Virus record (IMG/VR): IMGVR_UViG_2675903060_000001
Location: 42,864-106,863 of that record
DNA length: 64,000 bases
Direction: 5' to 3' (one strand)
Source: a virus
Lineage: Duplodnaviria > Caudoviricetes
Shown: positions 2,296 to 64,000 of the stretch, one piece after another
How positions within the stretch are numbered: the first letter of the stretch is position 1
How the letters are laid out: every line of letters starts with the position of its first letter
Program-made: the position numbers and the translations under genes
The notes under the pieces: model-generated
What the model was told of the DNA's origin: nothing
Databases searched by the model: none
Seen by the model: the letters and a program-made list of their open reading frames with translations, nothing else

Positions 2296-2322
2296 CTCTG
2301 CGAACAGTGAGGGCGAAAGATC

Positions 2323-3897
2323 ATGCCGCTTCCGGACCATGACCAGGAGTGGCCGCCGCCGCACATCCGGCGCGAGATGCGGCTGTATGAGGAGTGGGGA
2401 GCCTGGTACGCGGGCGACCCGGACCGGCTGGCCGACGTGTACGGCGCGTCCGGGGCGGTGCACGGCATCGGCCTGGACCCGAAGGGCTGGGACCGGCCGA
2501 ACAAGAGCTTCGGCGGCTGGCTCCAGCGCGCGGCACGCTACTTCTGGGGGACGCCGGTCCCGGCCGGGCAGGTCCGCTCCACGAAGCTGCACGTGCCGAT
2601 CGCCGGAGACATCTCCGCGACCAGCGCGGATCTTCTGTTCAGCGAGCCGCCGACGTTGAGGATCGCCGGGAAGAAGTCGCAGGCCCGCCTCGACAAGATC
2701 CTGCGGGACGCCGGGGTCTACGGGGCGCTCCTGGAGGCAGCCGAGACCAGCAGCGCGTACGGAGGCGTCTACCTGCGGGCCGGCTGGGACACGGAGATGT
2801 ACGACCACCCCGTCCTCAGCGTGCTCCCGCCGGACGCCGCCGTGCCCGAATTCCGGTACGGCAAGCTCGCCGCCGTCACGTTCTGGCGGGTGCTGGCCGA
2901 GGACGACGACCGGCAGGTGTGGCGGCACCTGGAACGGCACGAGAAAGGCCGCGTCTACCACGGCCTGTACCTGGGCACGCCCGACCGGCTCGGCATGCAG
3001 GTGCCGTTGGAGGACCACCCGGAGACGGCGATCTACGCCGACCAGGTGGACGAGAGCGGCGGGTTCGACTCCTACTACCCGCGCGGCCTGCTCGTCTCCT
3101 ACGTGCCGAACATGCGCCCCCACCGGCTGATCCGAGGCACCAGCCTGGGCCGCTCCGACTACCAGGGCGTCGAACACCTCATGGACGCCCTGGACGAGGT
3201 GTGGACGAGCTTCATGCGCGACTTCCGCATCGGCAAGGGCCGCGTGATCGTGCCGGACATCTTCCTCGACAGCCTCGGCCGCGGCCAGGGCGCGTCGTGG
3301 GACCCGGACCGGGAGATCTACGCGGGGCTCGGCATGCTGCCGCCGCCGGGGTCGGCCGCCAACAGCATGTTGACGCTGACGCAGTTCGCGATCCGGGTCA
3401 AGGAGCACGTGGACGGCGGGAAGGCGCTCGCCGCCCAGATCCTGCGCGGCGCCGGATACTCGGCCCAGTCCTTCGGGGAGGCGGACGGGTCCGGGCAGGC
3501 CGTCACCGCGACCGAGGTCCACTCCCGCGAGCGTAAGTCCTTCAGCACGCGGGGCCGGAAGACGGGCTACTGGAACCCCACGCTCCAGTGGGCGCCGGAC
3601 GTGCTGCTGTCGATCGACCGGGCCGTGTTCGGGCAGAAGGTGGCCGCCGACAAGATCGAAGTGCATTGGCCGGACGGCATCCAACCGGACCCGGAGTCGC
3701 TGGGCCGTACCGTCGAGCTGTTCAACCGGGCCCAGGCCATGTCGCTGGAGACGAAGATTCGCACCCTGCACCCGGAGTGGGACGACCACCAGGTCATCGA
3801 GGAACGCAACCGTCTGCGCGACGAGCTCGGCCTGAACGTGCCCGACCCCGACACGCTCGGCGACGTGCTCGTGCCCGACGCCGCCGGCGACGACTGA
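2323..3897 (+). CDS. Phage portal protein (SPP1/A118-like)
   Basis: 524 aa; LHVPIAGDI...ADLLFSEPP, GRSDYQG, LDEVWTS, TATEV, MSLETKIRTLHPEWDD motifs. Confidence 0.92.
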   Translation: MPLPDHDQEWPPPHIRREMRLYEEWGAWYAGDPDRLADVYGASGAVHGIGLDPKGWDRPNKSFGGWLQRAARYFWGTPVPAGQVRSTKLHVPIAGDISATSADLLFSEPPTLRIAGKKSQARLDKILRDAGVYGALLEAAETSSAYGGVYLRAGWDTEMYDHPVLSVLPPDAAVPEFRYGKLAAVTFWRVLAEDDDRQVWRHLERHEKGRVYHGLYLGTPDRLGMQVPLEDHPETAIYADQVDESGGFDSYYPRGLLVSYVPNMRPHRLIRGTSLGRSDYQGVEHLMDALDEVWTSFMRDFRIGKGRVIVPDIFLDSLGRGQGASWDPDREIYAGLGMLPPPGSAANSMLTLTQFAIRVKEHVDGGKALAAQILRGAGYSAQSFGEADGSGQAVTATEVHSRERKSFSTRGRKTGYWNPTLQWAPDVLLSIDRAVFGQKVAADKIEVHWPDGIQPDPESLGRTVELFNRAQAMSLETKIRTLHPEWDDHQVIEERNRLRDELGLNVPDPDTLGDVLVPDAAGDD

Positions 3898-5783
3898 TGA
3901 GTGCGCCGACGCTGGCGCTCCCGGCCGCGCAGCAGGAGGCCGCGCAGATCGAGGCCGCTCTCGACCACGCCCGCGCGGTGGCCGCGATCTACTGGCAGGC
4001 CGAGCGCGAGCTGCTGCGCGTCGTCTCGGAGGCCCTGGCCAAGCGCGAAGGCGAACCGGAGTACGCCGGGCCGCGCTTCGCCGAAGTGCGGGCGCTGCGG
4101 CGCGAAGCCGACCAGATCGTGCGGCGGCTGGAACGGCTGTCGGAGCGGCTGGTCACGGACGGCGTCAACGCCGCATGGCGGCGCGGCGCGCAGCGCGCCA
4201 CCGGCGACCTGGAACGGCTCGGCTCCCGCAAGGGCATCCCGCAGGGGCAGGGCGTCATCGAGATCGCCCGGCGCGCGACACGGCTGGTCGCCTCCACGCA
4301 GCCCGGAATGCGGTCGGCGCCGGAGTTCCTGTTCCAGCAGATCGTCAACCAGGTGGCCGCCCAGGCGCTCACCGGCGCGATCACCCGCCGCCAGGCCCAG
4401 GCCCGCCTCCTGGACCAGGTCGCCCGCCGAGGCATCACCGGCTTCACCGACACCTCCGGCCGGGTCTGGTCCGCCAGCGCGTACGCCGAGATGGCCACGC
4501 GGACCGCGATGGCGCAGGCCGCGACGGACGGCCACCTCGCCACCCTCGCCGCCAACGGCATCGACCTCGTCATCGTCTCCCGGCTGCCGTTCACGTGCGC
4601 CCGGTGCGCCGTCTGGGAGGGCACGGTCCTGTCGCAGGAAGGGCCGATCGGGTGGCGGCGCGAGGAGTCCGCCGTCTCCGACGACCTGGTGGACGTGCTC
4701 GTGGAAGGCACCGTGACGCAGGCCCGCGCCGCCGGGCTGCTGCATCCCGGCTGCGGCCACACGCTCGGCGCCTACCTGCCAGGCGTGACCCGCCCGCCGC
4801 GGCCGGCCATGCATCCCGCCGGGCCGGACGGCTATCGGGCGTCGCAGAAGATGCGCCGCCTCGAATCCGAGCTGCGCGCCGCGAACCGGCAGGCGGCGGT
4901 CGCGCTCGACGCCGACCAGCGGCGCAAGGCGGCGGCCCGCGCCGACCGGCTCACCCACCAGATCCGGGACCACGCGAAGACGTCGGGCATCCCCGCCCGC
5001 GCCGACCGGGTCCGGCAGGAGACGATCCCGCGTGACCTCGACCAGCGCACGGACGAGGAACTAGCCGGACTGCTCGGCCGGTGGGCCGACGACGAGGCAG
5101 CGGTCGCCCGCATCACCGACGTGCTGGAGCAGCGCGACCGCGACCGCGACCGGCAGCGGGACGAGCGGGTGCGCGAAGCGGTCGCCGACCTGCCGCCCGA
5201 GTTCGCCAACGCCGGCGACGACCAGGTGCTGGAACTGGTGCGGCGCTTCTCCGACGAGGGCGACCCCGTCGCGCTGGAGCGGCTGCTGGAGGCGCTCGAC
5301 GCCCGCGAGCAGAACCCGACGTGGTCGTGGCGGTCCGACGACACCGCCGAGGAACGCGCCGTCACCGACCTCATCGCGGACGGCATCGACCCGATGGACG
5401 CCTACGGGCAGGTGTACGGCGTGGACCCCGAGCAGATGCGGCGGCAGGACTCCCGCGCGCACGCCGAAGCCCAGCGGCGGCCGGGCGAGACCCTGGACCA
5501 GGTCGTCCGCCGCCTGTACGACGAGTGGCTTGAGCTTCAGTTCATCGCCGCCGAACGCTACGCCCGCGGCGTCCTCACCAACGCGGCCGGGCGGGCGGCA
5601 GGGATCGACGGCCGGACGCTGCTGTCTGGGCCGCAGTCCCGCGCCGACAAGTACGCCTCGGAGGAGCTGCGCGCGTGGTGGGAGCAGCACCCGCGCATGA
5701 CGCTGGTGGAGTTCCGGGCGCAGATGCTCGGCCGCGCCTCCGACCGCAAGGCCGCCCAGCGAGCGAAGGAGCAGCGGCGGTGA
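3897..5783 (+). CDS. Phage minor capsid protein (MuF-like) with long C-terminal extension
   Basis: ATG overlaps portal stop (TGATG); GFTDTSGRVW..SAYAEMATRT, C..C..WEG.VLS, GLLHPGCGH motifs. Confidence 0.85.
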   Translation: MSAPTLALPAAQQEAAQIEAALDHARAVAAIYWQAERELLRVVSEALAKREGEPEYAGPRFAEVRALRREADQIVRRLERLSERLVTDGVNAAWRRGAQRATGDLERLGSRKGIPQGQGVIEIARRATRLVASTQPGMRSAPEFLFQQIVNQVAAQALTGAITRRQAQARLLDQVARRGITGFTDTSGRVWSASAYAEMATRTAMAQAATDGHLATLAANGIDLVIVSRLPFTCARCAVWEGTVLSQEGPIGWRREESAVSDDLVDVLVEGTVTQARAAGLLHPGCGHTLGAYLPGVTRPPRPAMHPAGPDGYRASQKMRRLESELRAANRQAAVALDADQRRKAAARADRLTHQIRDHAKTSGIPARADRVRQETIPRDLDQRTDEELAGLLGRWADDEAAVARITDVLEQRDRDRDRQRDERVREAVADLPPEFANAGDDQVLELVRRFSDEGDPVALERLLEALDAREQNPTWSWRSDDTAEERAVTDLIADGIDPMDAYGQVYGVDPEQMRRQDSRAHAEAQRRPGETLDQVVRRLYDEWLELQFIAAERYARGVLTNAAGRAAGIDGRTLLSGPQSRADKYASEELRAWWEQHPRMTLVEFRAQMLGRASDRKAAQRAKEQRR

Positions 5784-9303: not shown

Positions 9304-9674
9304 CGCAACGCGGCATCGACGTGGACGTGCGGTTGGACCTGCACGTCAACCCCGAGGCGCTGGAGGCCAAGGCGCGGGTGGCGATCGAGCGGGGTCTCCA
9401 GGCGGCGACCGAGCACGTGCTGACGGCGACCCAGCCGAAGGTGCCGTGGCAGACCGGCGACCTGGAACGGTCAGGGTCGGCGGTCGTGGACCGGTCGAAC
9501 CTCGACGGCGTGATCTCGTTCGATCAGCCGTACGCGGTCGCCCAGCATGAACAGCTCGACTGGGAGCACCCGCTGAAGGGCGAGCCGAAGTACCTGGAGA
9601 CGACCCTGTACGAGGAGGCCGAGGTGGTGCGGGCGATGGTGGCCAAGGCGGTGCGGAAGGCGCTCGGCGGATGA
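9300..9674 (+). CDS. Tail completion protein (HK97 gp10-like)
   Basis: VP..TGDLERSG...YAVAQHE...H...KYLE motif. Confidence 0.8.
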   Translation: MTQRGIDVDVRLDLHVNPEALEAKARVAIERGLQAATEHVLTATQPKVPWQTGDLERSGSAVVDRSNLDGVISFDQPYAVAQHEQLDWEHPLKGEPKYLETTLYEEAEVVRAMVAKAVRKALGG

Positions 9675-10141
9675 CCACGCCGTCACCGCCGCTGCCGGGC
9701 CAGTTCTCGCGGGCGCTGCTGAACGGGCTGGCCGCGCTGCTCGCGGAGCGTGGGGTCGGCGTGTGGTCGCCGGTCGGCGCGTACGGGCCGCATCAGCTCG
9801 CGCTCACGATCGGCGGCTTGCCCGCCACCCCGGACACCGCGATCTCGCTGGCCATCTACGGGACCGGCGGCGACGACCTGGACGGCGGCGACTCGACGGT
9901 GCTCGTGCAGCTCCGGATGCGGGCCAAGGGCGACCCGCGTGACGTGGGCGACTACGCCGACGCCGTCTTCTCCGTGCTGCACGGCCTGACCGAGGTCCGG
10001 CTGTCGTCCGGGGTGCTGGTGCTGCGCGCGCGGCGCACGGTGGTGGCGCCGCCCGGCCGGGACTCCTCCGGCCGGTGGGAACGCGCCGACAGCTACGAGC
10101 TGATGGTGCACTGGCCCACCGCTCAGCGGGACGACGACTAG
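9671..10141 (+). CDS. Tail terminator-like protein
   Basis: P.TPD.AI.L..Y...VQLRMR...AVFSVLHG...GRDSSGRWE; position before tail tube. Confidence 0.75.
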   Translation: MTTPSPPLPGQFSRALLNGLAALLAERGVGVWSPVGAYGPHQLALTIGGLPATPDTAISLAIYGTGGDDLDGGDSTVLVQLRMRAKGDPRDVGDYADAVFSVLHGLTEVRLSSGVLVLRARRTVVAPPGRDSSGRWERADSYELMVHWPTAQRDDD

Positions 10142-42666: not shown

Positions 42667-43554
42667 GTGAACCTGCCCCCGATCATCCACCGCGTCCCCA
42701 CCGGCCGTCCCAGCCCCGCCGACATCGGCGACGCCAACCGCGACATCGACCCCCTCGAACAGGTCCGCCTCGTCGCCAACGCGCTCGTCCAGGAACTCAC
42801 CGAGTACCACCACCCGTGGATTCCCCTCTTCCAGGTCCGCGACGCCGCCACCAACCTCCTGACGGGCGACCACGCCACCGGCACGTGGCACGAACGCACC
42901 TCCGCCGTCTACGCGGACCTGGAGCGGGGCCTGCTGGACGGCAGCCTGTACGACCTCGCCGAGAACGAGGGCGACGCCACCACCACGGTCCACGCCGGTC
43001 GCGTGGCCAGCCTCGCCGCCACCGAGCACCTGCGCCGCCACGACACCCCCGCCTGGGAGGTCGTCCACGAGGTCTGGGCGGAGACGCTGTGCCGCGCCCT
43101 CGACTACCTCGCCGCCAACGGCCACGGCCGGAACCTGCCCCGCATGTTCGAGGCATTCGACGCTCTCGACCACTACGACGCCGCCACCGGCAAGGCCCTC
43201 ATCCAGCACCTGACCGCCGTCCCCGCCGACGACATCGCCACCATCACCCCCTCCCAGGTCCTCGCCGACGCGCGGGCCGCCGGCGCCCGCCCCGAGCACG
43301 TCCTGGACGCCACTGCGGTCGCCATCACGTCGGTGCTGGCACCGGTGGCGGGCTGCAACTTCCACGACATGCTGCCCGACGCGGCGGCCGACGTGCGGTC
43401 GTCGGCGCACCGCTGGCTGGACGAGACGCACGACATCGACGCCTACGCGGACGGGTTCACCTACGAGGGCCTGTCCGAGCAGCAGGTGTCCGGGATGCTC
43501 GACCACGTCGCGGAGTTCGCCCGCATGTACGACTGGTACGCCGACCAGCGATAG
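42667..43554 (+). CDS. Acidic hypothetical protein, first gene of accessory array
   Basis: GAAGGAG RBS; TG-G-TAGACT extended -10 candidate at ~42595-42603. Confidence 0.75.
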   Translation: MNLPPIIHRVPTGRPSPADIGDANRDIDPLEQVRLVANALVQELTEYHHPWIPLFQVRDAATNLLTGDHATGTWHERTSAVYADLERGLLDGSLYDLAENEGDATTTVHAGRVASLAATEHLRRHDTPAWEVVHEVWAETLCRALDYLAANGHGRNLPRMFEAFDALDHYDAATGKALIQHLTAVPADDIATITPSQVLADARAAGARPEHVLDATAVAITSVLAPVAGCNFHDMLPDAAADVRSSAHRWLDETHDIDAYADGFTYEGLSEQQVSGMLDHVAEFARMYDWYADQR

Positions 43555-48413: not shown

Positions 48414-48475
48414 CCCCTCACCGGCTGGCCCGCGCCGCGCGGGCCGGCCACCCCACCACCACGAGAGGAAGCCCT

Positions 48476-50659: not shown

Positions 50660-51292
50660 GTGGCCAACGCTGCGATCCCCATCCATCTCGCCCACGTCCC
50701 CACCCACAACGGGATGGTCATCCCGTACATCACCCTCCGCCACGCGGACGGTACCCCCGAACTGGGCCGCGTCGATCACAACCTGGTCGCCGAATGCCTC
50801 ACCGGCCGCCGCTGCCAGCTCTGCGCCCGCCCCCTCGACACCGGCGCCGACGCCGCCGCGGTAGTGATGGCCCGGCCGATGGACTTCGGATACGGGTACG
50901 TCCCCGAGCCCGCCCAGCACCCCGAGTGCGCCGCCTACGCGATCCGAGCGTGCCCGATGCTGTCGGGCCGGCTGCCGCGTCTGCGTGACCGGACCCGGCC
51001 GCAGCGACGCCAGTGCACCGCCGTGGCGGCGTGCTGGTGCGGCCTGGACGAGCCGCCCAGCGTGGACGCCATCGTCCGGTCCGGCCGCCCGGCGACGCCG
51101 TGGTACTCGGTCCGGTTCCCCATGACGGAGTACGAGCTGCTGATGACGGCGCGACAAGGGCCGCGCGGCATCTCCCTCCACGCCCTCACCAACCCGAAGA
51201 TCCGGCTCGTGTCCTGGGGCGACCCGGAATGGGACGACATGGGCCGCGCCGTGGTGTACGGGCTGCCCCTCCCGGACGGAGCCGACTCGTGA
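50660..51292 (+). CDS. Cys/His-rich hypothetical protein
   Basis: CL..RRCQLCARPL...EPAQHPECAAYAIRACPML. Confidence 0.7.
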   Translation: MANAAIPIHLAHVPTHNGMVIPYITLRHADGTPELGRVDHNLVAECLTGRRCQLCARPLDTGADAAAVVMARPMDFGYGYVPEPAQHPECAAYAIRACPMLSGRLPRLRDRTRPQRRQCTAVAACWCGLDEPPSVDAIVRSGRPATPWYSVRFPMTEYELLMTARQGPRGISLHALTNPKIRLVSWGDPEWDDMGRAVVYGLPLPDGADS

Positions 51293-52473
51293 TGAACGTC
51301 GTCTTCTCCTACGGCATGGGCGCCAACGGCACCGCGGCGCTCCTCCGCCTGCTGTTCGAGCCCGCCACCCGGCCGCCCGAGCTGGCCGACGACCTGTCCA
51401 ACCTCATCGTCATTACCGCGCAGACGGGTGACGAGTTCCTGGACACCGCCGTCATGGTCGAACAGCACATCTACCCGCTGCTCGCCGCCCGGCGGGTGCG
51501 GACAGTGCAGGTCGCCCGCGCGGGCCACTACGAACGGGACGGCATCGTCGTCCTGGACGACACCCGCGAGCCGATCCTGTGCCTGACCAGCGGCGCGTAC
51601 GCGCTGCTGGAGGAGATGACGAGCACCGCGACCGTACCCCAGTCGAAGGACCGGAAGCACAGCCAGAAGTTCAAAGGCTGGGTCATCGACCAGTGGCTCA
51701 AGACGAACATCGGCGACGAGCCGTACCTGCACGTCATGGGGTACGACGTGAGCGAGCCCGACCGGGTCGCCGGGGACCTGGCGCTCGGCCTCCCCAACAA
51801 GATCCCGTGGTATCCGCTCGTGGACTGGGGCTGGGACTGGGACGCCTGCGAGCGCTACATCTTCGCCCGGCTCGGCGTGCGGTGGAAGCGCTCGCACTGC
51901 GTCGAGTGCCCGTTCGCGTTCTCCGTCACCAAGGGAGGCCGGGCGCGGACCATCCCGCGCCTGCTCGCGCACCCGCACCAGGCGATGGACGCGCTGACGA
52001 TGGAGTACCTGGCCGTCGCCTGCAACCCCAAGCAGGGGCTGATCGCGGGCAAGGAGCAGCTCTACGACCTGATCGCCGACTGGCCGGGCGGCCCCATCCT
52101 GCTGAAGCTGTTCCACCACCACCTCGACGCCGCCGAGTGGGCGGTGTACGACGTGCAGCGCGGATTCGGCAGGAAGCCCGACGACCCGATGAAGCGCGGA
52201 CAGCCGGCCCGCAGCATGCGCCCGCTCATCACCGGCAGCCGCACCGACATGCTCGCCCACCTGGAGCGCGCCGCCGGCCTGCTCGGGCGGCGGCTGGAGA
52301 CGGACGGCCGCCACTGGCGGGTGTGGTGGCGGCGGCGCGGCATCTACTTCCCGACCGTCGAGCACCTGCTGACCGCCGCGCCCGCGCTGGCGCAGCACAA
52401 GACCAACTCCTCGTTCCCGAAGCTGTGGCGGGAGGGCCTGAAGGCCACCCGGCAGCTCGAACTCGCCATCTGA
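51292..52473 (+). CDS. PAPS-reductase-like PP-loop protein
   Basis: VFSYGMGANGT PP-loop variant, AQTGDEF, SQKFKG.VI, YPLVDWGW...C..YI, RSHCVECPF. Confidence 0.7.
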   Translation: MNVVFSYGMGANGTAALLRLLFEPATRPPELADDLSNLIVITAQTGDEFLDTAVMVEQHIYPLLAARRVRTVQVARAGHYERDGIVVLDDTREPILCLTSGAYALLEEMTSTATVPQSKDRKHSQKFKGWVIDQWLKTNIGDEPYLHVMGYDVSEPDRVAGDLALGLPNKIPWYPLVDWGWDWDACERYIFARLGVRWKRSHCVECPFAFSVTKGGRARTIPRLLAHPHQAMDALTMEYLAVACNPKQGLIAGKEQLYDLIADWPGGPILLKLFHHHLDAAEWAVYDVQRGFGRKPDDPMKRGQPARSMRPLITGSRTDMLAHLERAAGLLGRRLETDGRHWRVWWRRRGIYFPTVEHLLTAAPALAQHKTNSSFPKLWREGLKATRQLELAI

Positions 52474-52488
52474 CCGGAGGACCCTCGC

Positions 52489-54519
52489 ATGGCATCGTCA
52501 CAACGCAGCCGCGTCAGGAAGCGGCAGCAGCCTCGCGTCGCCACGCACCGCCCGGCCGTGCGCCCGCGCCGGTTCCGCCACGACGACCTCATCGCCGTGG
52601 ACCTGTTCTCCGGCTTCGGAGGGCTCACGAAGGGCATCGAGGACGCCGGGTTCACCACGATCCTCGCGGCCAACCACAACGAGTACAAGGTCAAGGTCCA
52701 CGAGAAGAACCACCCGCACGCCGAGCACTGGATCGCCGACCTCGTGGACAAGGAGGCGTCCGACTACCACTCCGCCGCCGACCTTCCCCGCGCTGACCTC
52801 CTCGTCGCGGGCGTGAGCTGCACCAATCACTCGCAGGCGAACACGCAGAAGGCTTACCAGTTGGGCCTGGCGCTGTTCGAGCTGGACGACCCCGAGTATC
52901 AGGAGCGCGCGACTCGATCGGAGAAGGACAGAGCGACGGCGACGTGCGCGCTGCAATACGCGGCCAAGCACCACCCGAGGATGGCTCTCATCGAGTGCAC
53001 CACGGAACTGTACTCATGGGGGCCTCGGGTACCAGGCAAGAAGTACGGCGACGGCTCCACCTATCGGTGGTGGCTCAAACAGTGGGAAAACGAGGGCTAC
53101 AACTTCCGCATCCTCTACCTCAACAGCATGTTCTTCGGGGTGCCGCAGTCCCGTGACCGGCTTTACATCATCTTCTGGGACGAGAAACTGCCCGCGCCGG
53201 ACCTCGACCACCGGCCCGAGTCGTGGTGCGGCTTCTGCGGCACGATCGTCCAGGCGGTGTGGACCTGGAGGACCGGGATTCCGGCCACGGGCAGCGTCCG
53301 CTACAGCAAGCAGTACGAGTACCGGTGCCCCTCCTGCCGCCGGATCGTGATCCCGCCGTTCGCTCCGTCGATCAACGCGCTGGACCTGTCCGACCTCGGC
53401 CCCAAGATCGGTGACAGGCCGCTCAAGGAGTTCACGGACAAGAAGACGGGCGAGACCGTCATGAGCCCGCTGGCGCCCTCCACGATGGCCAGGGCCGAGC
53501 GGTGCAGGCAGAAGTTCGCCGACTTCCCCGCCGTGCTCATGCCGGCCAAGGCCGTCCACGGGTCCGAGCGCCACCCGTGGCAGCCCCTCTCGACGCAGAC
53601 CAGCCAGCAGGAGACGGCAATCCTCTCGACCGGGGCGCTCGTCGCCGCCGCGGGCAACACCTTCGAGCGGCCCGGCTCCGACTGCCGTACCCGCACCCTG
53701 GACGAGCCTCTGCCGTCGCAGACCGCGACGAACACGCAGGCGCTGCTCACGCCGCCGGTCTCCGTGGTGACGGGGCAGGTGATGGTCGCGCACCGGCACA
53801 ACGGCGATGGCCAGCACATCACCGAGCCGATGGACACCGTCACCAGCGTGCACGAGAAAGCGGTCCTGCTCGCGGTCAACAACTTCCAGGGCTCCCCTCG
53901 TGGCGTCGATGAGGTGCTGCCCACGCAGGGCGGCTCGGAGACGCTGGGGCTGCTGTCCGCTGGCGTCGTGCCGTTCCGGAAGAACACGCTGCCGACCTCG
54001 CACGCCGAGGCCATGCCCACTGTCACGTCCGATCAGATCCCCGGCCTGATCACCGCCGCTGGGATGGTGCAGTTCCGGCAAGGAACCGACCGCCGCGTAG
54101 CAGGTGTTGATCGGCCGCTGAACACGGTGGTCGCTGATGGTGCTGGGCATGGCCTGCTGTTTTCCGGCTGGTACAAGCAGAACGGGTCTGAGGCCGACGC
54201 GACAGCGCCGCACCCCGCGAGCGACCCGCTCGGCACGCTGACCGCCCGCGACACCACGGCTCTACTCCACGCGCAGTGGCGCGAGGTCCTTGCGGATCTG
54301 AGGCTGGAGGACTGTCACTTCCGCATGATGGCCCCGCACGAAGTCGGCGTTGGCTGCGGCTTCGATGTCGATTTCGGCAACCACAAGGGGTCGTTCATCG
54401 TCTGGGGCTCCGCGAGAGACCAGATTGACGGCTTCGGCAACGCCGTCAGCCCTCCCGTTGGAGAGTGGATCGGCAGACGCCTTCGCGCTGTTCTTCACGG
54501 AGAACAGCTTGACGATTAG
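52489..54519 (+). CDS. DNA (cytosine-5) methyltransferase with repeated TRD-like units
   Basis: Motif I DLFSGFGG; catalytic SC; GVPQSRDRLY; FRMM.PHE...GF; GNAVSPP. Confidence 0.9.
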   Translation: MASSQRSRVRKRQQPRVATHRPAVRPRRFRHDDLIAVDLFSGFGGLTKGIEDAGFTTILAANHNEYKVKVHEKNHPHAEHWIADLVDKEASDYHSAADLPRADLLVAGVSCTNHSQANTQKAYQLGLALFELDDPEYQERATRSEKDRATATCALQYAAKHHPRMALIECTTELYSWGPRVPGKKYGDGSTYRWWLKQWENEGYNFRILYLNSMFFGVPQSRDRLYIIFWDEKLPAPDLDHRPESWCGFCGTIVQAVWTWRTGIPATGSVRYSKQYEYRCPSCRRIVIPPFAPSINALDLSDLGPKIGDRPLKEFTDKKTGETVMSPLAPSTMARAERCRQKFADFPAVLMPAKAVHGSERHPWQPLSTQTSQQETAILSTGALVAAAGNTFERPGSDCRTRTLDEPLPSQTATNTQALLTPPVSVVTGQVMVAHRHNGDGQHITEPMDTVTSVHEKAVLLAVNNFQGSPRGVDEVLPTQGGSETLGLLSAGVVPFRKNTLPTSHAEAMPTVTSDQIPGLITAAGMVQFRQGTDRRVAGVDRPLNTVVADGAGHGLLFSGWYKQNGSEADATAPHPASDPLGTLTARDTTALLHAQWREVLADLRLEDCHFRMMAPHEVGVGCGFDVDFGNHKGSFIVWGSARDQIDGFGNAVSPPVGEWIGRRLRAVLHGEQLDD

Positions 54520-54520
54520 T

Positions 54521-54540
54521 CGTTGTCGGTTCCGCCAACG
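54521..54540. repeat. Dispersed palindrome, copy 8 (CGTTGTCGGTTCCGCCAACG)
   Basis: Starts 1 nt after the methyltransferase stop. Confidence 0.85.
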
Positions 54541-54587
54541 GACACGCCCGCTCCCTCGCGGAGCGGGCCACACCACCAAGGAGAACC

Positions 54588-55235
54588 ATGTCGATCACCG
54601 ACACCACCGCCACGCCGACCATCGCCGAGCTGGTCAACGCCACCGGCCTGCCCGGTAACACCGACCTCCGTCTCCTCCCCGGCATGCACGCCCTCCCGCG
54701 CAACCTCATGCTCCGTGAGGGCATCCGAACGCTCGCCATCCTGGCCGAGCACGACGATGCGTCCCTCATGGACATCCGGAACTTCGGGGTGTGGTGCCGG
54801 GACCACGTTCGCGCCGTCCTGGCCGAGCTGGGCGAGCGCCACGCGGCCATCATGCGGAACGCGCCGCCCTGGCACCAGGAGATCGCCGACCTCGCCGGAG
54901 CCCTCCGGGACGGCTACGACGAGCACCTCATCACCTCCGTCCTGGCCCGTGTCACTGAGGCGGGTGCCCCCGGCTACCTGCTGTGCGTGTGGGCCGAGCA
55001 CGACGCGGCCGGGTACGGCGGCGACTCGGAGGTTTACATCGACGCCGACCACGGCGGCGGCCTCTGTCACGTCGGCGGGGACCTGTGGGCGTGGCTGTCC
55101 CAGCACCCCCTCACGCCCGGCACGCCGGCCACCCCCGGAGACCCGGCCACGTGGAAGGGCAACTCCGCCGGGTTCGACCTGGACAGCCTGCCCGTGGACG
55201 ACGGCCGCCACAACTTCGCCCGCACCAGCTACTAG
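54588..55235 (+). CDS. Protein with RNA polymerase alpha-CTD-like domain fused to an unknown domain
   Basis: RNLMLREGIRTLAILAEHDDASLMDIRNFGVWCRDHVRAVLAELG mirrors the actinobacterial RpoA NCLKREGI...LLDIRNFG pattern. Confidence 0.75.
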   Translation: MSITDTTATPTIAELVNATGLPGNTDLRLLPGMHALPRNLMLREGIRTLAILAEHDDASLMDIRNFGVWCRDHVRAVLAELGERHAAIMRNAPPWHQEIADLAGALRDGYDEHLITSVLARVTEAGAPGYLLCVWAEHDAAGYGGDSEVYIDADHGGGLCHVGGDLWAWLSQHPLTPGTPATPGDPATWKGNSAGFDLDSLPVDDGRHNFARTSY

Positions 55236-55301
55236 CCCGCCCGCGTCCCCGCCGGCCGCATGGTCGGCGGGGACCACCCCACCACCACCAAGGAGAAGGT
55301 C

Positions 55302-55658
55302 ATGGCAATCGACCTGGAGTCCGACCAAGCCAAACACGTCATCACCGAGCACAACAACTGGGTCAACTACGGCAACGGACGTGGCGGCCTTCACGCCTAC
55401 ACATTCTGCGGCTGGCTCTACGCGGATGGCCGTATGGAGGGCGCCTACATCTACGGCGACTGGTGGCAGAACCCGGACATCAAGAACGTGTGCCCGCACT
55501 GCGTGCACGCCCTCACCTGCGACGTGATCTTCAACGAGGCCCGCGCCGCCGAGCGCGCCACCTGCTCGGGCTGTGCTGCATACGACGCCGACAAGGCTCT
55601 CGGCCACCCGGCGAAGCGCAGCCAAACGGCCGAACACGCCAGCGCCGAACACCCGTAG
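55302..55658 (+). CDS. Cys-rich hypothetical protein
   Basis: AAGGAG RBS; TFCG...CPHC...C...CSGC. Confidence 0.7.
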   Translation: MAIDLESDQAKHVITEHNNWVNYGNGRGGLHAYTFCGWLYADGRMEGAYIYGDWWQNPDIKNVCPHCVHALTCDVIFNEARAAERATCSGCAAYDADKALGHPAKRSQTAEHASAEHP

Positions 55659-55727
55659 ACCACCGCGCCCCCGCCGGCCGCCGGGCGGGCGGGGGCCTCC
55701 CCACCACCACGAAAGGAAGGCCCCGAG

Positions 55728-56024
55728 ATGGGCAAGTACGACCAGCAGAACGAAGACCTGCACACCACCCTCACCCAGGCCGGGATCGCCGCCCGGATCG
55801 ACTACGACGGCGACGAACACGAGGTCACCGTCGAGCTCCCCACCGGGCGGCTCATCTTCGACCCGACCGACGACGGCGCGTGGCGGCTCGACATCGAGAG
55901 CGACTACAACGACGGCTGGGTCGCGCGGGAGAACGTGCTGACCGGGATCGGCGTCGAGTACGCGGCCCCGGTCGTGGAGGGCCTGCTGCGCTGGTTCCAG
56001 GCACGCTCGGCGGCAGGTGCCTGA
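55728..56024 (+). CDS. Acidic hypothetical protein
   Basis: Leader motif + RBS. Confidence 0.7.
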   Translation: MGKYDQQNEDLHTTLTQAGIAARIDYDGDEHEVTVELPTGRLIFDPTDDGAWRLDIESDYNDGWVARENVLTGIGVEYAAPVVEGLLRWFQARSAAGA

Positions 56025-56344
56025 TGGGCGAGAAGACGTTGTTCTACCGCCACAACGCCCAGGGCCAGATCTGGCTCATCGAGGACGACCACAGCCGCCA
56101 GGTCATGGATGCCTTTCCGAACCCGCTGGCGTGCGCGGTCGTGCACGAGCTGAACAACGCGCTCCAGCGCGGGCAGCTCACCAGCGGCACGGCCACGTAC
56201 CGCGCGCACGACACGACCGTGCTCATGACGCCCGCGCATGGGTTCGGGGAGCGGCCACTGCCGGTGGACGGCCTCACCCGCGAGCAGGCAATCGCGCTCG
56301 CGGTCGAGCTGCACCAGGCCGGCCAGATGGGCGCCTACACGTGA
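56024..56344 (+). CDS. Hypothetical protein
   Basis: TGATG coupling. Confidence 0.6.
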   Translation: MGEKTLFYRHNAQGQIWLIEDDHSRQVMDAFPNPLACAVVHELNNALQRGQLTSGTATYRAHDTTVLMTPAHGFGERPLPVDGLTREQAIALAVELHQAGQMGAYT

Positions 56345-56580
56345 AGCGCAGTTCCACTAAGCCGCCGCGAGCTCGACGGCCCTCGCTCGCGGAGCTGGAG
56401 GCTCCGTGCGGGAGGTGTGGTTGCCAAAACGGTGGCCACACCCTCGGCCGCAGGGTGACCTCGTGGGCGCAGGGCGAGTGGGCGGCCCTCTTTGACGAGG
56501 TGTTCATGACCGCGTCGGGCGCGTGCGCGAATCCCGGCTGCGGCTGCCCCGGCCGCACGGAAGGAGGCGGCCCTCGATGA
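56341..56580 (+). CDS. Small Cys-rich protein
   Basis: CGRCGC....H...GAC....CGC. Confidence 0.55.
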   Translation: MKRSSTKPPRARRPSLAELEAPCGRCGCQNGGHTLGRRVTSWAQGEWAALFDEVFMTASGACANPGCGCPGRTEGGGPR

Positions 56581-57224
56581 GTCGCCAACTCGCGCTGCGG
56601 ATGTCGCCCGTGGTCGCGTTCTACCAGGTGGACGTGGACGAAGTCGTGGAACTGCTGATCCGGTGGCGGCACCCGCTCCACCTCCCCAGCGACGAGCACC
56701 CCGAGGGCCGACCGTACAAACGCCCGTACGGCTCCCTGGGTTTCGTCATGGAGGACCGCGGCCGGGTGGCCGCTGCCGTGATCCTGGCCAGCACCGTGAA
56801 CACCTCGGTCTGCAAAGACCGAGGGCTGCACCGGTACAACACGGTGGACCTGTCCAGGATCGCGCGCAGCCCGGACCGGCGCGACGAGCAGTGCCTGCGG
56901 GCGGTGCTGCGCATCGCGCGGCTCTACCTGGTGCCGTTGTGGCTCGGCACCTACGCCGGGTGGGACGCCCACTCGGCAGAGAAGTGCGGCGGCCAGCCGC
57001 GCATCGAGGCGGTGTCGTCCACATCGCTGCCCGGCACGCCCGGCAACCTGTACCGGTTCGACGGCTGGGAGAAGCTCCGCACCTCCAAGGGCCCCATGGG
57101 CGGCGGCCGTCAGAAGCCTTCCGCCGCGAACGAAATCGCGGACGGGGCGCGCGGCCTGTGGGTCTACCGCTACCCCGAACCGATCACCACCACCACCACG
57201 AAGGAGATCACCCATGTCGGATAA
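56577..57224 (+). CDS. Mom-like GNAT-fold DNA modification protein
   Basis: LL.RWRHPL...VDLSRIAR...RAVLR...PGNLYRFDGW matches the Mom-family (E/D)LxR and GxxYRxxGW pattern. Confidence 0.6.
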   Translation: MSRQLALRMSPVVAFYQVDVDEVVELLIRWRHPLHLPSDEHPEGRPYKRPYGSLGFVMEDRGRVAAAVILASTVNTSVCKDRGLHRYNTVDLSRIARSPDRRDEQCLRAVLRIARLYLVPLWLGTYAGWDAHSAEKCGGQPRIEAVSSTSLPGTPGNLYRFDGWEKLRTSKGPMGGGRQKPSAANEIADGARGLWVYRYPEPITTTTTKEITHVG

Positions 57225-58221
57225 CAGCGCCATCGAATGGCTCCGAGGCCCGGACGGACGACGCGGCGCCACCTGGAACTTCGTCACCGGCTGCACGAAG
57301 GTGTCGGAGGGGTGCCGCCGCTGCTACATCGAACGGCAGACGCCGATGCGGGTCGCCGGCCGCCGGTTCGACGGCCCGCACATCGGCGCCACCACCGGGG
57401 TCATGCTGCACCCCGAGCGGCTCGACATGCCGCTGAAGAAGCGCGACCCGCTTCGCATCTTCGTCAACAGCATGTCCGATCTCTGGCACGACGACGTGCC
57501 CACCGAGATGGTCGCGCACGCGTTCGCCGTGATGGCGATGACGCCCCAGCACACCTATCTGATCCTCACCAAGCGGCCCGGCCCCATGCGGTCGATGCTC
57601 CGCTCGGATGACTTCTGGAAGGCAGTCGGCGAAGCAGGCAGAGGCATCGCGTTCGCGCGAGTCCGGGGCAAGTACCGGTCGGCGTCCCCGATGCAGCTCA
57701 CCCCGGACTCCAGCGCGGACGGCTACTGGATGCCGGTCCGGCCGCTGCCGAACGTTCAGATCGGGGTGTCCACCGAGGACCAGGCCACCGCCGACCTGCG
57801 CATCCCGACGCTGCTGGCCACCCCGCACATCGCCGTCCGGTGGATCTCGGCGGAACCGCTGCTCGGGCCGGTCGTGCTCCGCGATGAATGGCTCGCCGCC
57901 GACCCCGAGAGCAGCACGCCCGCGCTCGACTGGGTCGTCGCCGGCGGCGAGTCCGGCACCGACGCACGGCTCATGCACCCGGACTGGCCGCGCAGTCTCC
58001 GCGACCAGTGCACCGCAGCGGGGGTGCCCTTCTTCTTCAAGCAATGGGGTGCCTGGACGCCGACCGGCATGGTCGGCATCGGCAACCAGGGGCCGCGCTT
58101 CGCGTACATCGGTGACCCCGTGGATGAGCACGGCCACCGCATCGTCATGGAGAACGTCGGCAAGCACCAGGCGGGCGCCATCCTCGACGGCCAGACGTGG
58201 ACGGAGTACCCCGATGCCTGA
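57214..58221 (+). CDS. DUF5131 / phage Gp37Gp68 family protein
   Basis: SAIEW...TWN.VTGCTKVSEGCRRCY, FVNSMSDL, ILTKRP, ISAEPLLG, WVVAGGESG, FFFKQWG. Confidence 0.93.
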   Translation: MSDNSAIEWLRGPDGRRGATWNFVTGCTKVSEGCRRCYIERQTPMRVAGRRFDGPHIGATTGVMLHPERLDMPLKKRDPLRIFVNSMSDLWHDDVPTEMVAHAFAVMAMTPQHTYLILTKRPGPMRSMLRSDDFWKAVGEAGRGIAFARVRGKYRSASPMQLTPDSSADGYWMPVRPLPNVQIGVSTEDQATADLRIPTLLATPHIAVRWISAEPLLGPVVLRDEWLAADPESSTPALDWVVAGGESGTDARLMHPDWPRSLRDQCTAAGVPFFFKQWGAWTPTGMVGIGNQGPRFAYIGDPVDEHGHRIVMENVGKHQAGAILDGQTWTEYPDA

Positions 58222-58609
58222 CCTGACCCTCTGGGAAGAACTGGAGACGGCGGCTGAGATCATCCTCGCCGCAGCCGCGCAGGCCCACGACGGCCCGTGG
58301 ATCGCCGTCCAAGATGCGGTCTGCTACGAGAGCGGGTCGTGCATAGCCGCCGTCTACGAGGGCGCCAACGACGCCACCTGGATGGCGCTGAACGACCCCG
58401 CGATGGGGCCTCTGTTCGCCGCCGTCCTGAAGGACGCCGCCCAGAGATGGAAGTCCGAGGTGCGGTTCCAGGCGGACGGCTGGTACCACCGGGCGTGCGA
58501 TGGCGTCTCCGGCCCTGGCACCGACGAGGACTGCACGTGTTTCGCCTCCGTGCTGGGCCTCGCGCGGCACATCCGAGCGAAGTGGGCGAAGGTGTCGGGC
58601 CGTGGGTAG
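58214..58609 (+). CDS. Hypothetical protein
   Basis: GGAG RBS; A..GPW...DATWMAL.DP. Confidence 0.6.
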   Translation: MPDLTLWEELETAAEIILAAAAQAHDGPWIAVQDAVCYESGSCIAAVYEGANDATWMALNDPAMGPLFAAVLKDAAQRWKSEVRFQADGWYHRACDGVSGPGTDEDCTCFASVLGLARHIRAKWAKVSGRG

Positions 58610-58901
58610 GCGGGTCAAGGTCAGCGGGGACCTGTTCCACGGCCAGGTCCCCGCCGGAGCCGTCTACATCGGCCGGCCCGCGCCGAGCCTGCCGGGGTCG
58701 CCGTTCGCGAACCCGTACAGCGTCAAGACGTACGGGCTGGAGAACGCGCTCGCCCGCTACCGGAAGCATTTGGCCGAGCATCCGGAGCTGGTGGAGCGGG
58801 CCATCGAGGAGATCGGCGACCGGGACGTGGCGTGCTGGTGCAAGCCGGACGCTCGGTGCCACGGGGACATCCTGCTCGCCGCGATGGCGGCCAGGAGGTG
58901 A
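58602..58901 (+). CDS. DUF4326 family protein
   Basis: GAVYIGRP...SPFANPY...ACWC...CHGDIL. Confidence 0.88.
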   Translation: MGRRVKVSGDLFHGQVPAGAVYIGRPAPSLPGSPFANPYSVKTYGLENALARYRKHLAEHPELVERAIEEIGDRDVACWCKPDARCHGDILLAAMAARR

Positions 58902-58905
58902 CCCG

Positions 58906-59808
58906 GTGGAGTTCTTTCTCGGGACGAGCTCGTCTTCCTGGCTCAGGCGGGAGGACGTGGGCGTGCCGCTCTGCGTCGCCTACCCGCGCCTGGCCGCGAT
59001 CAAGGGTGAGCTGCCGCGCGCCGTGGTGCCGTGGATTCTCGACTCCGGTGGCTTCAACGAGGTCACGCAGCGGGGCGAGTACAGGGCCGCGGCGATCGAC
59101 TACGTGCGGGCGGTGCGCCGGTACGCCGACGAGATCGGCAACCTGCGGTGGGCGGCCTGCCAGGACTGGATGTGCGAGCCGCCTGCGCTCGCCAGGTCGG
59201 GCCGGTCGGTGAACGGCCACCAGCACCTGTCGATCGACAACTACATCACCCTGCGCGGGGAGTGGGGGCCGGGCTCCCCGTTCGTGCCGCCGCTCCAGGG
59301 CAACAGCCGAGACGCCTTCCTCCGCCACGTCGATATGTACGCGCGGCGCGGCATCGACCTGACGAGAGCGCCGCTCGTCAGCGTCGGATCGGTGTGCCGG
59401 ATGCAGAGCACGTCGGAGATCGGGCGCGTGCTCGGCGCGCTGGCCAGCCTGGGCCTCAAGATGCACGGCTTCGGTGTGAAGACGCTCGGGTTGCGCGCGT
59501 TCTGGCCCTTCCTTCTCTCGGCTGACTCGCAGGCGTGGTCGAAGAACGCCCGCGCGAACGCCGACGACATCTACATCGACGTCCCCGAACACACCCACCC
59601 CCGCGGCGGCAAGACCTGTTCGAGCTGCCACGTCTACGCGCTGGCCTGGCGGAAGCGGATGCTGGCCAGCCTCCCGGCCGCGCCCTCGCACACGGTGATG
59701 GAACTGCCCGGCATCTACGGGGAGGGGCGGTCCTCCCTGACCAGGGCGGAGCCGCCGCGCGTGCGCTACAGGCCGGGCATCCCCATCTACTCCAGGAGAT
59801 CATCATGA
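58906..59808 (+). CDS. TGT-fold base-exchange enzyme (DpdA-like)
   Basis: AGGAGG RBS; FFLGT...WILDSGGF, QDWMCEP, P.LQG, VGSVCR, HGFGVK, SADS.AWS. Confidence 0.8.
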   Translation: MEFFLGTSSSSWLRREDVGVPLCVAYPRLAAIKGELPRAVVPWILDSGGFNEVTQRGEYRAAAIDYVRAVRRYADEIGNLRWAACQDWMCEPPALARSGRSVNGHQHLSIDNYITLRGEWGPGSPFVPPLQGNSRDAFLRHVDMYARRGIDLTRAPLVSVGSVCRMQSTSEIGRVLGALASLGLKMHGFGVKTLGLRAFWPFLLSADSQAWSKNARANADDIYIDVPEHTHPRGGKTCSSCHVYALAWRKRMLASLPAAPSHTVMELPGIYGEGRSSLTRAEPPRVRYRPGIPIYSRRSS

Positions 59809-60572
59809 CCCAGCTCAACAGCCCTGCCCCCAGCGCGGGACCGGCTGGCCGCTTACATCTCAAGCTCGTCGTCTACCAGCCCCCCGAGCAGGACGCCGGC
59901 CCGGCCGCGCCGCCGATCGGGGTCCCGTACGAGATACGCGACCATCTCGCCCGCAAGGTGGCCGTGGCGCTGGACGTGCTCGCCCTGGCGGAGGCGGATG
60001 GGGTGGCGGCGGTGTGCGCCGCAGCCGCTGAGGACGCGGCGTACCCGCTGAACCAGCTCATCGACTTGTTCGCTGCCCGCTACCAGACGAGCGCGGGCCG
60101 GGCGCGAAGCCATGCGATGCGCATGGTGCGCGAGCGGATGGGCGTGGTGCAAGACCGATGCTGGGAGAAGGTGTCGGCGCGGGAACGCCGGGAACAGATC
60201 ACGTCTCTCGTCCGTGAGGGCCTGTCGGTGGAGGCCATCGCCCAGCGGCTGAAGGTGACCGTACGCACTGTCCTGCGGCACAAGCATGCGGCCGGGCTGA
60301 CCAGCAGGACGTACCTGTACGACGAGTGGGCGCCGCGTATCCTCGGCCATCTCCGCGTGTTCCCGGAGACCGAGTTCAGTGGCGGCGATCTCGCGCGGCT
60401 GCTGCTGGGGGAGCCCAGCAACCGGTTCGTTCCGACGCTGCGCCGCCTGGAGCGTGAGGGGCAGGTCATCTCGGTCGCGTGCATCCGCGACTCCAGTTCT
60501 CCGACCGTCAGGGTGACGCGGTGGCGGCTCGCCCCGGAGGAGGGAGGTGGCAGTGGCGACGCCGAAGTGTGA
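59805..60572 (+). CDS. Multi-HTH DNA-binding protein
   Basis: EGLSVEAIAQRLKVTVRTVLRH plus C-terminal winged helix. Confidence 0.75.
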   Translation: MTQLNSPAPSAGPAGRLHLKLVVYQPPEQDAGPAAPPIGVPYEIRDHLARKVAVALDVLALAEADGVAAVCAAAAEDAAYPLNQLIDLFAARYQTSAGRARSHAMRMVRERMGVVQDRCWEKVSARERREQITSLVREGLSVEAIAQRLKVTVRTVLRHKHAAGLTSRTYLYDEWAPRILGHLRVFPETEFSGGDLARLLLGEPSNRFVPTLRRLEREGQVISVACIRDSSSPTVRVTRWRLAPEEGGGSGDAEV

Positions 60573-62773: not shown

Positions 62774-63640
62774 CTACTTCACCTCGATCTTCAGCTTGCC
62801 CAGGCCGGCCCGCTCGCTCAGGATCGAGGCGAGCGTGTCGTAGTTGTCCGCCATCTCGTTCCCGGCCGACCCGAGAGCCCTGAGCGGGCGCGGCGGGTCG
62901 GAGTCGGCGGCGTCCTTGACCGCCGCTCGCAGGGGCAGCATCGGCAGCATGAGGCCATCTCCGAACAGCTCGGGGATGTTCTCCTTGGTCTGGTAGGCGT
63001 CCGCGCCGAGCCGGGCGTCCACCTTGTTGACGATGTAGCCGATGATGCGGAGGTCGTCCTTGTCGAGCTTCTTCCGGCCGTTGGCGACGAAGTCCCGCAG
63101 AGCGATGGCGCCCTCAATGCCGTCGATCTCGGGGTCCATGACCACCAGGACGTCGTGCGTGGCCTTGAGGACCATCTGCGTGAGGTGACCCAGGTTCGGT
63201 GGGCAGTCCATCAGGACGATGTCGAAGTCGTCGTCGGCACCGTCGAGAGCGACGTCGAGCCGCTTGACCGCGCCGAGGAGGCCCGCTTCGGTGAGCGCCC
63301 GGTTCTCGAGATCGGGCCTGGACGGGATGAGCGTGATGTTGCTGCGGTAAGGCTCTGGCCAGCCGATCTCGGCGAATGCGTCGGCGGCGCACCCGGACAG
63401 GTCGGCGTCGGGCTGTTCGGCGATGGCTCTGAGCACGTCGGAGATGGTGACCTGGTTGGCGGCGAGCAGGGCCGCCAGCCGGCGGCCTGCGTTGCCCTGC
63501 GGGTCCATGTCGATGACCAGTACGCGCATGCCGTGGAAGGCCAGCGCGGCGGCGAGGTTGACGACAGCGCTGGTCTTGCCGGTGCCGCCCTTGTTGTTGG
63601 CGACGGCGATTCTTCGCGCTCGTCGCTGTGGCTGGGTCAC
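62774..63640 (-). CDS. parA: ParA/Soj partition ATPase
   Basis: NNKGGTGKTS deviant Walker A; LVIDMDPQGN; MDCPPNLG; AGGAG RBS before GTG 63640. Confidence 0.95.
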   Translation of the reverse strand: MTQPQRRARRIAVANNKGGTGKTSAVVNLAAALAFHGMRVLVIDMDPQGNAGRRLAALLAANQVTISDVLRAIAEQPDADLSGCAADAFAEIGWPEPYRSNITLIPSRPDLENRALTEAGLLGAVKRLDVALDGADDDFDIVLMDCPPNLGHLTQMVLKATHDVLVVMDPEIDGIEGAIALRDFVANGRKKLDKDDLRIIGYIVNKVDARLGADAYQTKENIPELFGDGLMLPMLPLRAAVKDAADSDPPRPLRALGSAGNEMADNYDTLASILSERAGLGKLKIEVK

Positions 63641-63689
63641 GGTGTCTCCTGTGGTGAGCAAGTCCTGCCGGTGGGCGCTGGGCGACATC

Positions 63690-64000
63690 CTAGGACTGGC
63701 CGCTCTGGTCGAGGTGGTCGAACCACGCGTTCAACGCCTGGGGGATGAACTCCTGGCCGCCCAGCCCCTCCAGGTGGCAGCCGTCGATGAGCCGGGCACG
63801 GGTGTTGGGTTCGAGCCGGGCGGTGATGAGTTTGAGCGCGCTCGGGTCGGCCGCGGGTTCGCTCGGCCGGGGGATGGGGTCGTGCGCGTTGTCGAGCGGC
63901 ATCTGCTCGGGGATGCCGAGCTGGTCGCAGTAGTAGTTGATGGCCTGCTCCCAGACGTCTCGGACGCCCAGGCCGGTGTTTTCGCAGGCGGCGTCCATGC
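63690..64000 (-). CDS. Tandem RHH-like DNA-binding protein, probably 5' truncated
   Basis: Two related units: DAACENTGLGVRDVWEQAINYYCDQL and ITARLEPNTRARLIDGCHLEGLGGQEFIPQALNAWFDHL. Confidence 0.55.
   Translation of the reverse strand, partial: MDAACENTGLGVRDVWEQAINYYCDQLGIPEQMPLDNAHDPIPRPSEPAADPSALKLITARLEPNTRARLIDGCHLEGLGGQEFIPQALNAWFDHLDQSGQS

Follow-up and report, generated by a model that had tools for sequence, protein, structure and literature searches.

A probably mosaic row of putative DNA-acting enzyme genes, including an Orion-type DpdA and a GNAT-fold relative of Mom, in a phage-like actinobacterial element

The window analyzed here is a 64,000-nucleotide (nt) stretch of the virus record IMGVR_UViG_2675903060_000001 (Duplodnaviria; Caudoviricetes; positions 42,864 to 106,863), and it makes up the final 64 kb of contig C9 (106.9 kb) in a genome of 10.05 Mb and ~71% GC that is rated 100% complete. 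Between positions 51292 and 59808 it carries a row of genes that encode, among others, a C5 cytosine DNA methyltransferase, a DpdA-like enzyme of the tRNA-guanine transglycosylase (TGT) fold, a GNAT-fold protein resembling phage Mu Mom, and DUF5131, DUF4326 and PAPS-reductase-like proteins. We favor, with a probability of roughly 60%, the view that these genes are transcribed together but are mosaic in their evolution, forming a row of independent, swappable cassettes that each encode one DNA- or nucleotide-acting enzyme. A preliminary description of the same DNA had proposed a layered anti-restriction system that may install an undescribed base modification. Several separate DNA-acting enzymes do seem to be co-expressed, but they do not behave as one system, as DpdA, the GNAT protein and DUF5131 each occur alone elsewhere, and the apparent six-enzyme pathway probably reflects no more than a chance packing of cassettes. 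A new base modification is possible, but nothing in the present analysis points to one.

The preliminary description had held that its proposal would fall if the genes did not co-occur in homologous loci, and across the loci sampled here they are largely unlinked. Two related Nonomuraea elements, L054 and L063 (the latter from Nonomuraea sp. NPDC050202), are syntenic with the present one. Amino acid identity to L054 is 85% for the GNAT-fold protein (g12), 50% for the DUF5131 protein (g13), 40% for the small protein g14 (~40% identity to the proteins at the same position in both elements), 71% for the DUF4326 protein (g15) and 92% for DpdA (g16), and these gene-by-gene jumps between 40 and 92% argue for independent histories. 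L063 keeps the genes from g4 through DUF4326 and has no DpdA, the slot of which (9356–10006) holds the gene for a 217-amino-acid protein with a sigma-70 region 4 helix-turn-helix (HTH). The set of small open reading frames (ORFs) varies as well; g7, g8, g10 and g11 are unmatched in L054, and g8 and g11 are unmatched in L063, where g7 does have a match.

Farther away, DpdA lies without array neighbors in 20 of 20 other Streptosporangiaceae loci. In 11 of these 20 a homologous gene for a 700–870-amino-acid protein lies ~3 kb away (the one example scanned has an FtsK/SpoIIIE domain), and smaller subsets of the DpdA loci share Prim-Pol and DUF3631 genes, as in conjugative elements. The DpdA neighbors are unrelated in phages Larva and MarkPhew, and DUF5131 is absent from the whole genomes of Orion, Larva and MarkPhew. 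The GNAT gene is present alone in five loci (L055, L064, L065, L067 and L068), and in a Planobispora element ~19 kb separates it from DpdA and its surroundings are further DNA-related cassettes. DUF5131 genes are found in 171 phage records, and stand alone in phages Zirinka and Sbash.

Genes in the window were called from a plot of third-position GC (GC3) by reading frame, together with inspection of starts and ribosome-binding sites (RBS), because raw ORF lists are useless at ~71% GC. By both the frame plot and the start codons the whole block is on the plus strand, in agreement with the preliminary description. The segment from 51292 to 59808 contains 12 plus-strand ORFs; the six genes named previously mostly hold, but another six with coding-type GC3 had been missed, namely g7 to g11 in the gap between the methyltransferase and GNAT genes and g14 between DUF5131 and DUF4326. 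The end-to-start overlaps from the Mom-like gene to DUF4326 had been read correctly (11, 8 and 8 nt from g12 to g15), and so had the 4-nt gap ahead of DpdA, but the extent of the block had been understated, as all junctions from g9 (55728) to the end of g17 (60572) are overlaps of 1–11 nt or 4-nt gaps.

A leader/RBS motif, CACCACSARRGR, is present in five copies where 0.18 would be expected, and every copy lies just ahead of a start codon (those of g1, g7, g8, g9 and g13). These CACCAC-S-A-RR-GR copies are at 48457–48468, 54571–54582, 55283–55294, 55705–55716 and 57194–57205. The copy in front of the DUF5131 gene sits inside the non-conserved coding 3′ tail of g12, and judged from the sequence this looks like a cassette junction. 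Longer copies of the repeat (37–45 nt), at 48430, 50593, 55252 and 55674, span GC-rich, apparently self-complementary stretches upstream.

The C5 methyltransferase of the preliminary description, g6 (52489–54519, plus strand, 676 amino acids), is well founded. It matches PF00145 (E = 5.9e-22) and TIGR00675 (2.4e-23) and has motifs I, IV, VI, VIII and X (FSGFG, SC, ECT, QSRDR and GNAV, respectively), with S-C rather than P-C in motif IV and with motifs VIII and X separated by a long variable stretch. Part of the gene has 74–77% nucleotide identity to methyltransferase genes of actinobacterial plasmids, and when the complete block was compared with phages and plasmids by megablast, methyltransferase pieces and a 121-nt piece of DUF5131 were the only matches. 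The protein appears to be an orphan enzyme, which would put 5-methylcytosine (5mC) on the element DNA and so blunt host restriction. Protection by 5mC is the sole function in the array that we assign with confidence, and this activity, like every biochemical activity discussed here, is one that we infer.

The gene previously described as TGT/DpdA-like, g16 (58906–59808, plus strand, 300 amino acids), is clearly that. It matches PF23859 with 242 bits (E = 8.6e-72; gathering cut-off 27 bits), and its AlphaFold model (20 homologs; mean confidence, pLDDT, 81) has the TGT fold; in a Foldseek search the top PDB match is DpdA (7ui4) and the next 49 listed are all TGTs, with probability 1.0 and a template-modeling (TM) score of ~0.5. 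PDB chains searched with the single sequence and with a 22-sequence profile gave no match, and only the fold search linked g16 to DpdA and TGT. The preliminary description had held that absence of catalytic residues from models would also count against its proposal; the Asp triad D46 (LDSGGF), D87 (QDWMCE) and D207 (SADS) is intact in g16 and, with Q131 and G132, is invariant in 22 sequences, the residues being mapped by motif and spacing and not by structural superposition. The spacing to Q131 and D207 matches that of Q203 and D280 in the Zymomonas mobilis TGT. Relative to the bacterial Dpd system of Salmonella Montevideo, whose DpdA is the best structural match, g16 has equivalents of the three Asp residues (D95, D130 and D256, which in bacterial DpdA are the general acid/base, base-recognition and nucleophile Asp) and a TGT-like spacing of D46/F50, D87, Q131 and D207 (PMC10164549). 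It differs in its lack of a sequence-level PDB match, in the replacement of His181 by Gln, in giving no Dpd match in PADLOC, and in having no DpdB or DpdC identified nearby. With the TGT catalytic and guanine-recognition residues kept, g16 would probably be a guanine-site DNA transglycosylase.

The DpdAs of ~400 mycobacteriophages are 45–50% identical to g16; that of Orion, the nearest relative with analyzed DNA, is 47% identical and is matched by PF23859 at 1.9e-142. Rosebush has no match to g16 nor to PF23859. By these matches g16 is a member of the Orion-type "singleton" DpdA clade and is without a match to the preQ0-inserting DpdA of Rosebush. Orion itself is a "singleton" DpdA phage, and its DNA was found to contain fewer than 6 residues per 10^6 nt of each of dPreQ0, dADG, dG+, dPreQ1 and dQ (PMC6884629). 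The present case shares with Orion and the other mycobacteriophage singletons (Hutinet et al. 2019; PMC6884629) the absence of que genes from element and host, but it is in a Streptosporangiaceae-type host and has its DpdA packed beside DUF4326 and DUF5131, whereas the mycobacteriophage neighbors are unrelated. Comparison with the preQ0/G+ modules of Rosebush, CAjan and 9g, in which DpdA1 is accompanied by FolE, QueD, QueE and QueC, gives a similar picture; here too a phage-borne TGT-fold enzyme lies in a DNA-metabolism region, but QueC and QueD, the pathway families that were searched, are absent.

The preliminary description noted that the window contains no folE, queC, queD or queE gene, which is correct, and proposed that the host be checked for preQ0 genes. 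In the complete genome, including the whole element contig, QueC, QueD/PTPS, TGT and YhhQ (PF06508, PF01242, PF01702 and PF02592) each gave 0 matches in searches that as positive controls found matches in 9 to 14 of 14 control genomes. QueC and QueD, being absent from the whole genome, are therefore absent from the element too. A preQ0-type base for g16 is very unlikely in the present host because the genome has none of these four families, and preQ0, preQ1, G+, ADG and CDG are not expected as its substrates because neither host nor element makes them. The previous suggestion that the TGT-like enzyme must use a host or non-canonical base can be sharpened to this extent, that the host route appears closed for preQ0-type bases. 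Among 401 sampled genomes of the host family, 27 have an Orion-type DpdA and 45 a full-length QueC (E ≤ 1e-40; one unpublished genome, G125, is included in this count and affects only it). Only 6 of the 45 also have DpdA, and 21 of the 27 DpdA-bearing genomes are without full-length QueC.

The Mom-like gene, g12 (56577–57224, plus strand, 215 amino acids), holds up in part. Its AlphaFold model (24 homologs; pLDDT 88) has a GNAT fold, and when realigned to the Mu Mom crystal structure 8bv8 it gave a Z score of 13.5, tied first with generic GNATs, with 156 aligned residues, the longest alignment of the leading matches. On the other side, Pfam, PHROGs, NCBIfam and PADLOC gave no match to g12, and PF25680, which in the same library recognizes Mu Mom at 2.4e-75, matched none of 24 family members (E ≤ 1) and two among 32 that are more distant (best 4e-5). 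A hidden Markov model (HMM) of the g12 family is colinear with Mom over Mom residues 55–225, a weak alignment (6.1 bits; E = 4e-4 for that single comparison), and hhalign gave no significant similarity between the GNAT family and Mu Mom. In the weak HMM alignment R94 and W164 of g12 pair with the essential R111 and with W181 of Mom and the g12 tail aligns with Mom's special C-terminal insertion, while at the positions equivalent to Mom S124, D149 and R151 other, non-conserved residues are present; the catalytic roles of Mom residues, including R111, S124, D149 and R151, are described in PMC13219725. The g12 family is a small one, numbering 234 representatives in 1.84 billion proteins, with no g12 match by tblastn in 50,697 phage records and no homolog in a class-wide sample of 400 genomes.

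In our reading g12 is a distant Mom relative in a separate family. It shares with Mu Mom, which performs a glycyl-tRNA-dependent modification of adenine at N6 (PMC13219725; 8bv8), a GNAT fold that lacks the glycine motif of the CoA P-loop as well as the R111 and W181 equivalents; it differs in failing PF25680, in lacking the S124, D149 and R151 equivalents, and in having no conserved Com-like partner upstream. Its chemistry probably differs from that of Mom, and it would probably acylate a nucleic-acid base with a donor or a chemistry unlike Mom's. The ORF that overlaps its start by 4 nt, g11 (56341–56580), encodes a Cys-rich protein of 79 amino acids and is positioned like Com before mom in Mu. 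No conserved Com-like zinc-finger partner was found, and the ORFs upstream of the GNAT gene are unrelated between loci. At another locus, in Planobispora rosea (L071; BMQP01000026.1, 96820–117302), the GNAT homolog is surrounded by a long accessory array with an SRA_ScoMcrA-domain gene, a DprA-like gene, a true PF01507 PAPS reductase and a DNA methylase. A 2076-amino-acid protein (P0249) has 15 separate stretches that match positions 141–194, in the C-terminal part of the GNAT-family profile, and it may carry a repeated form of this segment.

The three other recognizable enzymes, DUF5131, DUF4326 and the PP-loop protein, would be further cassettes, and come last in our order of confidence after the methyltransferase, DpdA and the GNAT protein. 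The DUF5131 protein, g13 (57214–58221, plus strand, 335 amino acids), was identified correctly together with its radical-SAM-like Cys motif; it matches PF07505 with 263.7 bits (2e-78) and its translation contains C27-x6-C34-x2-C37. It also weakly matches the radical-SAM NCBIfam model TIGR04471 (1.6e-11), and it matches PADLOC PDC-M41B and PDC-M30B at 1e-56. DUF5131 is listed as a radical SAM subgroup by RadicalSAM.org (PMC9477430). The gene upstream of DUF5131 might be expected to be the TcmP partner (TIGR04474), but it gave no NCBIfam match, and almost nothing was found in the literature on DUF5131 and TcmP. PDB searches with DUF5131 and g5 gave nothing useful (there was a weak "PptA" match, E = 0.08). 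The DUF4326 assignment of g15 (58602–58901, plus strand, 99 amino acids) is likewise sound, with matches to PF14216 (64.9 bits against a cut-off of 25; 1.1e-17) and phrog_464 (6.3e-23) and none in PADLOC; the family is predicted to be rhodanese-phosphatase-like and to process ADP-ribose derivatives (PMC9503650).

The first gene of the cluster, g5 (51292–52473, plus strand, 393 amino acids), encodes a remote PP-loop/PAPS-reductase-like protein, and here the earlier label stands on one match, that to phrog_424 ("PAPS reductase", 7.8e-9). No Pfam, NCBIfam or PADLOC match was found for it, and PF01507 matched 0 of 23 family members. The family N-terminus has a PP-loop-like SxGxGxDS(T/S) and a C-x2-CPF consensus, but in g5 itself, in L054 (3953–5128) and in L063 (1839–3017) the loop is GMGANGT, with Asn-Gly in place of the nearly invariant Asp-Ser. 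In these three sequences the replacement is a conserved feature of the lineage and not a one-off lesion. The phrog_424 match, the loop and the C-x2-C pair of the family recall DndC, SspD and phage PAPS-reductase-like proteins; the absence of a PF01507 match, the altered loop, and the lack of a Dnd or Ssp partner in PADLOC among the ten proteins scanned set it apart from them.

The remaining genes of the row are small. The five plus-strand ORFs g7 to g11 (54588–56580), called from the frame plot and starts, encode proteins of 215, 118, 98, 106 and 79 amino acids. Residues 39–84 of g7 (54588–55235) weakly match the C-terminal domain of the RNA polymerase alpha subunit (RNA_pol_A_CTD, 6.9e-4; NF003514, 3.4e-6), and the alpha N-terminal domain is absent. 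g14 (58214–58609, plus strand, 131 amino acids), also called from the frame plot, has no Pfam, PHROG, NCBIfam or PADLOC match, and its Atlas model resembles DUF6221 clusters (TM 0.61). Two genes adjoin the cluster and lie outside it. Upstream, g4 (50660–51292, plus strand, 210 amino acids; GC3 frame and RBS) encodes a Cys-rich protein of no known family (no match in Pfam, PHROG or PADLOC), its stop overlaps the start of g5, and it is syntenic in L054 and L063. Two paralogs of g4 lie directly downstream of DpdA on a Planobispora contig (L048; 11015–11593 and 11949–12572), and outside the close relatives only g4 and C5 methyltransferase genes (three loci) were found as neighbors beside DpdA. Downstream, g17 (59805–60572, plus strand, 255 amino acids), the last gene of the packed block, encodes an HTH protein (HTH_38, 5.8e-5; phrog_664, 2.8e-5); its start overlaps the DpdA stop (ATGA), and it is syntenic in L054 and partly so in L063.

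Profile searches found SPP1-type portal (PF05133) and minor capsid (PF06152, 4.2e-45) genes in the left part of the window (2311–5780) and a ParA-type partition ATPase gene (AAA_31) at 62777–63730, near the right end and the end of the contig, and from these we take the element to be phage-like. With capsid genes at one end and ParA at the contig end, it may perhaps be a phage-plasmid instead of an integrated prophage. The array would belong to the early, DNA-metabolism arm of the phage-like element. The names on close homologs point to a Nonomuraea-type actinomycete, family Streptosporangiaceae, as the host.

Several observations weigh against independent cassettes. The gene order recurs in the two related elements L054 and L063, the overlaps and 4-nt gaps across 55728–60572 mean that the genes are expressed together and could cooperate, and the co-occurrence sample covers a few dozen loci and is not exhaustive. 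By analogy, moreover, a PP-loop protein, a radical-SAM-like protein and a TGT-like protein are formally the QueC, QueE and DpdA set of enzyme classes, and an unknown base would have escaped notice in Orion, since its DNA was tested for five known deazaguanines only. A rival reading is one integrated pathway, in which the PP-loop protein, DUF5131 and perhaps the GNAT protein would build a non-canonical guanine analog and DpdA would swap it into the element DNA; this would be the undescribed base of the preliminary description. The tight packing with its overlapping stops and starts, the synteny in L054 and the parallel to QueC, QueE and DpdA all speak for such a pathway, whose product would have to be new because the host has no Que pathway. 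We nevertheless think it quite unlikely, as L063 has the putative biosynthetic genes but no DpdA, Orion-type DpdA is present without these genes in 20 loci and 3 phages, identity differs sharply between individual genes, a QueD-like step is missing, and in this lineage other residues stand in for the PP-loop Asp-Ser. A non-canonical deazaguanine pathway in particular, with g5 as the QueC-like and DUF5131 as the QueE-like enzyme, was rejected on two grounds, the failure of co-occurrence and the absence of QueD.

DpdA and its neighbors might instead be counter-defense or inter-element weapons rather than enzymes that modify the element itself, with DpdA for example exchanging damaged or adducted guanine for free guanine and DUF4326 processing ADP-ribose-type products. 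This would suit an enzyme whose guanine-recognition and catalytic residues are conserved without a deazaguanine supply, and whose family has as its main carriers temperate phages and loci that resemble conjugative elements and contain FtsK-type and Prim-Pol genes; the predicted action of DUF4326 on ADP-ribose derivatives (PMC9503650) and the matches of DUF5131 to the candidate defense systems PDC-M30 and PDC-M41 also fit. It is purely inferential, however, Orion is not known as temperate, and a conserved DpdA–DUF4326 pairing is not found outside the present lineage, so we regard it as unlikely. Insertion of a classical 7-deazaguanine (preQ0 or a relative) obtained from the environment or by a missed host route is what would be assumed by default in DpdA-only phages (PMC6884629), and full-length QueC in 6 of 27 DpdA-bearing family genomes would allow it there. 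We consider it highly improbable here, given a 100%-complete host genome with no QueC, QueD, TGT or YhhQ transporter, the failure to find any such base in Orion DNA, and a clade without sequence-level matches to the preQ0-inserting DpdAs. A mosaic of independent cassettes is the reading that we prefer.

A bolder proposal, to which we give little credence, is that DpdAs of the Orion-type clade put into DNA a guanine substitute that originates outside the queuosine pathway and has escaped targeted mass spectrometry, and that g12 adds a second, non-Mom base acylation; if true, there would be two undescribed modifications in the element DNA in addition to 5mC. The g12 family is in any case undescribed and uncurated, with equivalents of Mom R111 and, by a weak alignment, perhaps of the insertion but not of the other catalytic residues, and as the tRNA-dependent chemistry of Mom was solved only in 2026 it is a natural next target. 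For DpdA, the present case adds weight to a question that has stood since 2019, namely what role a "singleton" DpdA plays where no 7-deazaguanine can be made, in a family whose catalytic and guanine-binding residues are fully conserved and which occurs in a range of actinobacterial phages and conjugative-element-like loci.

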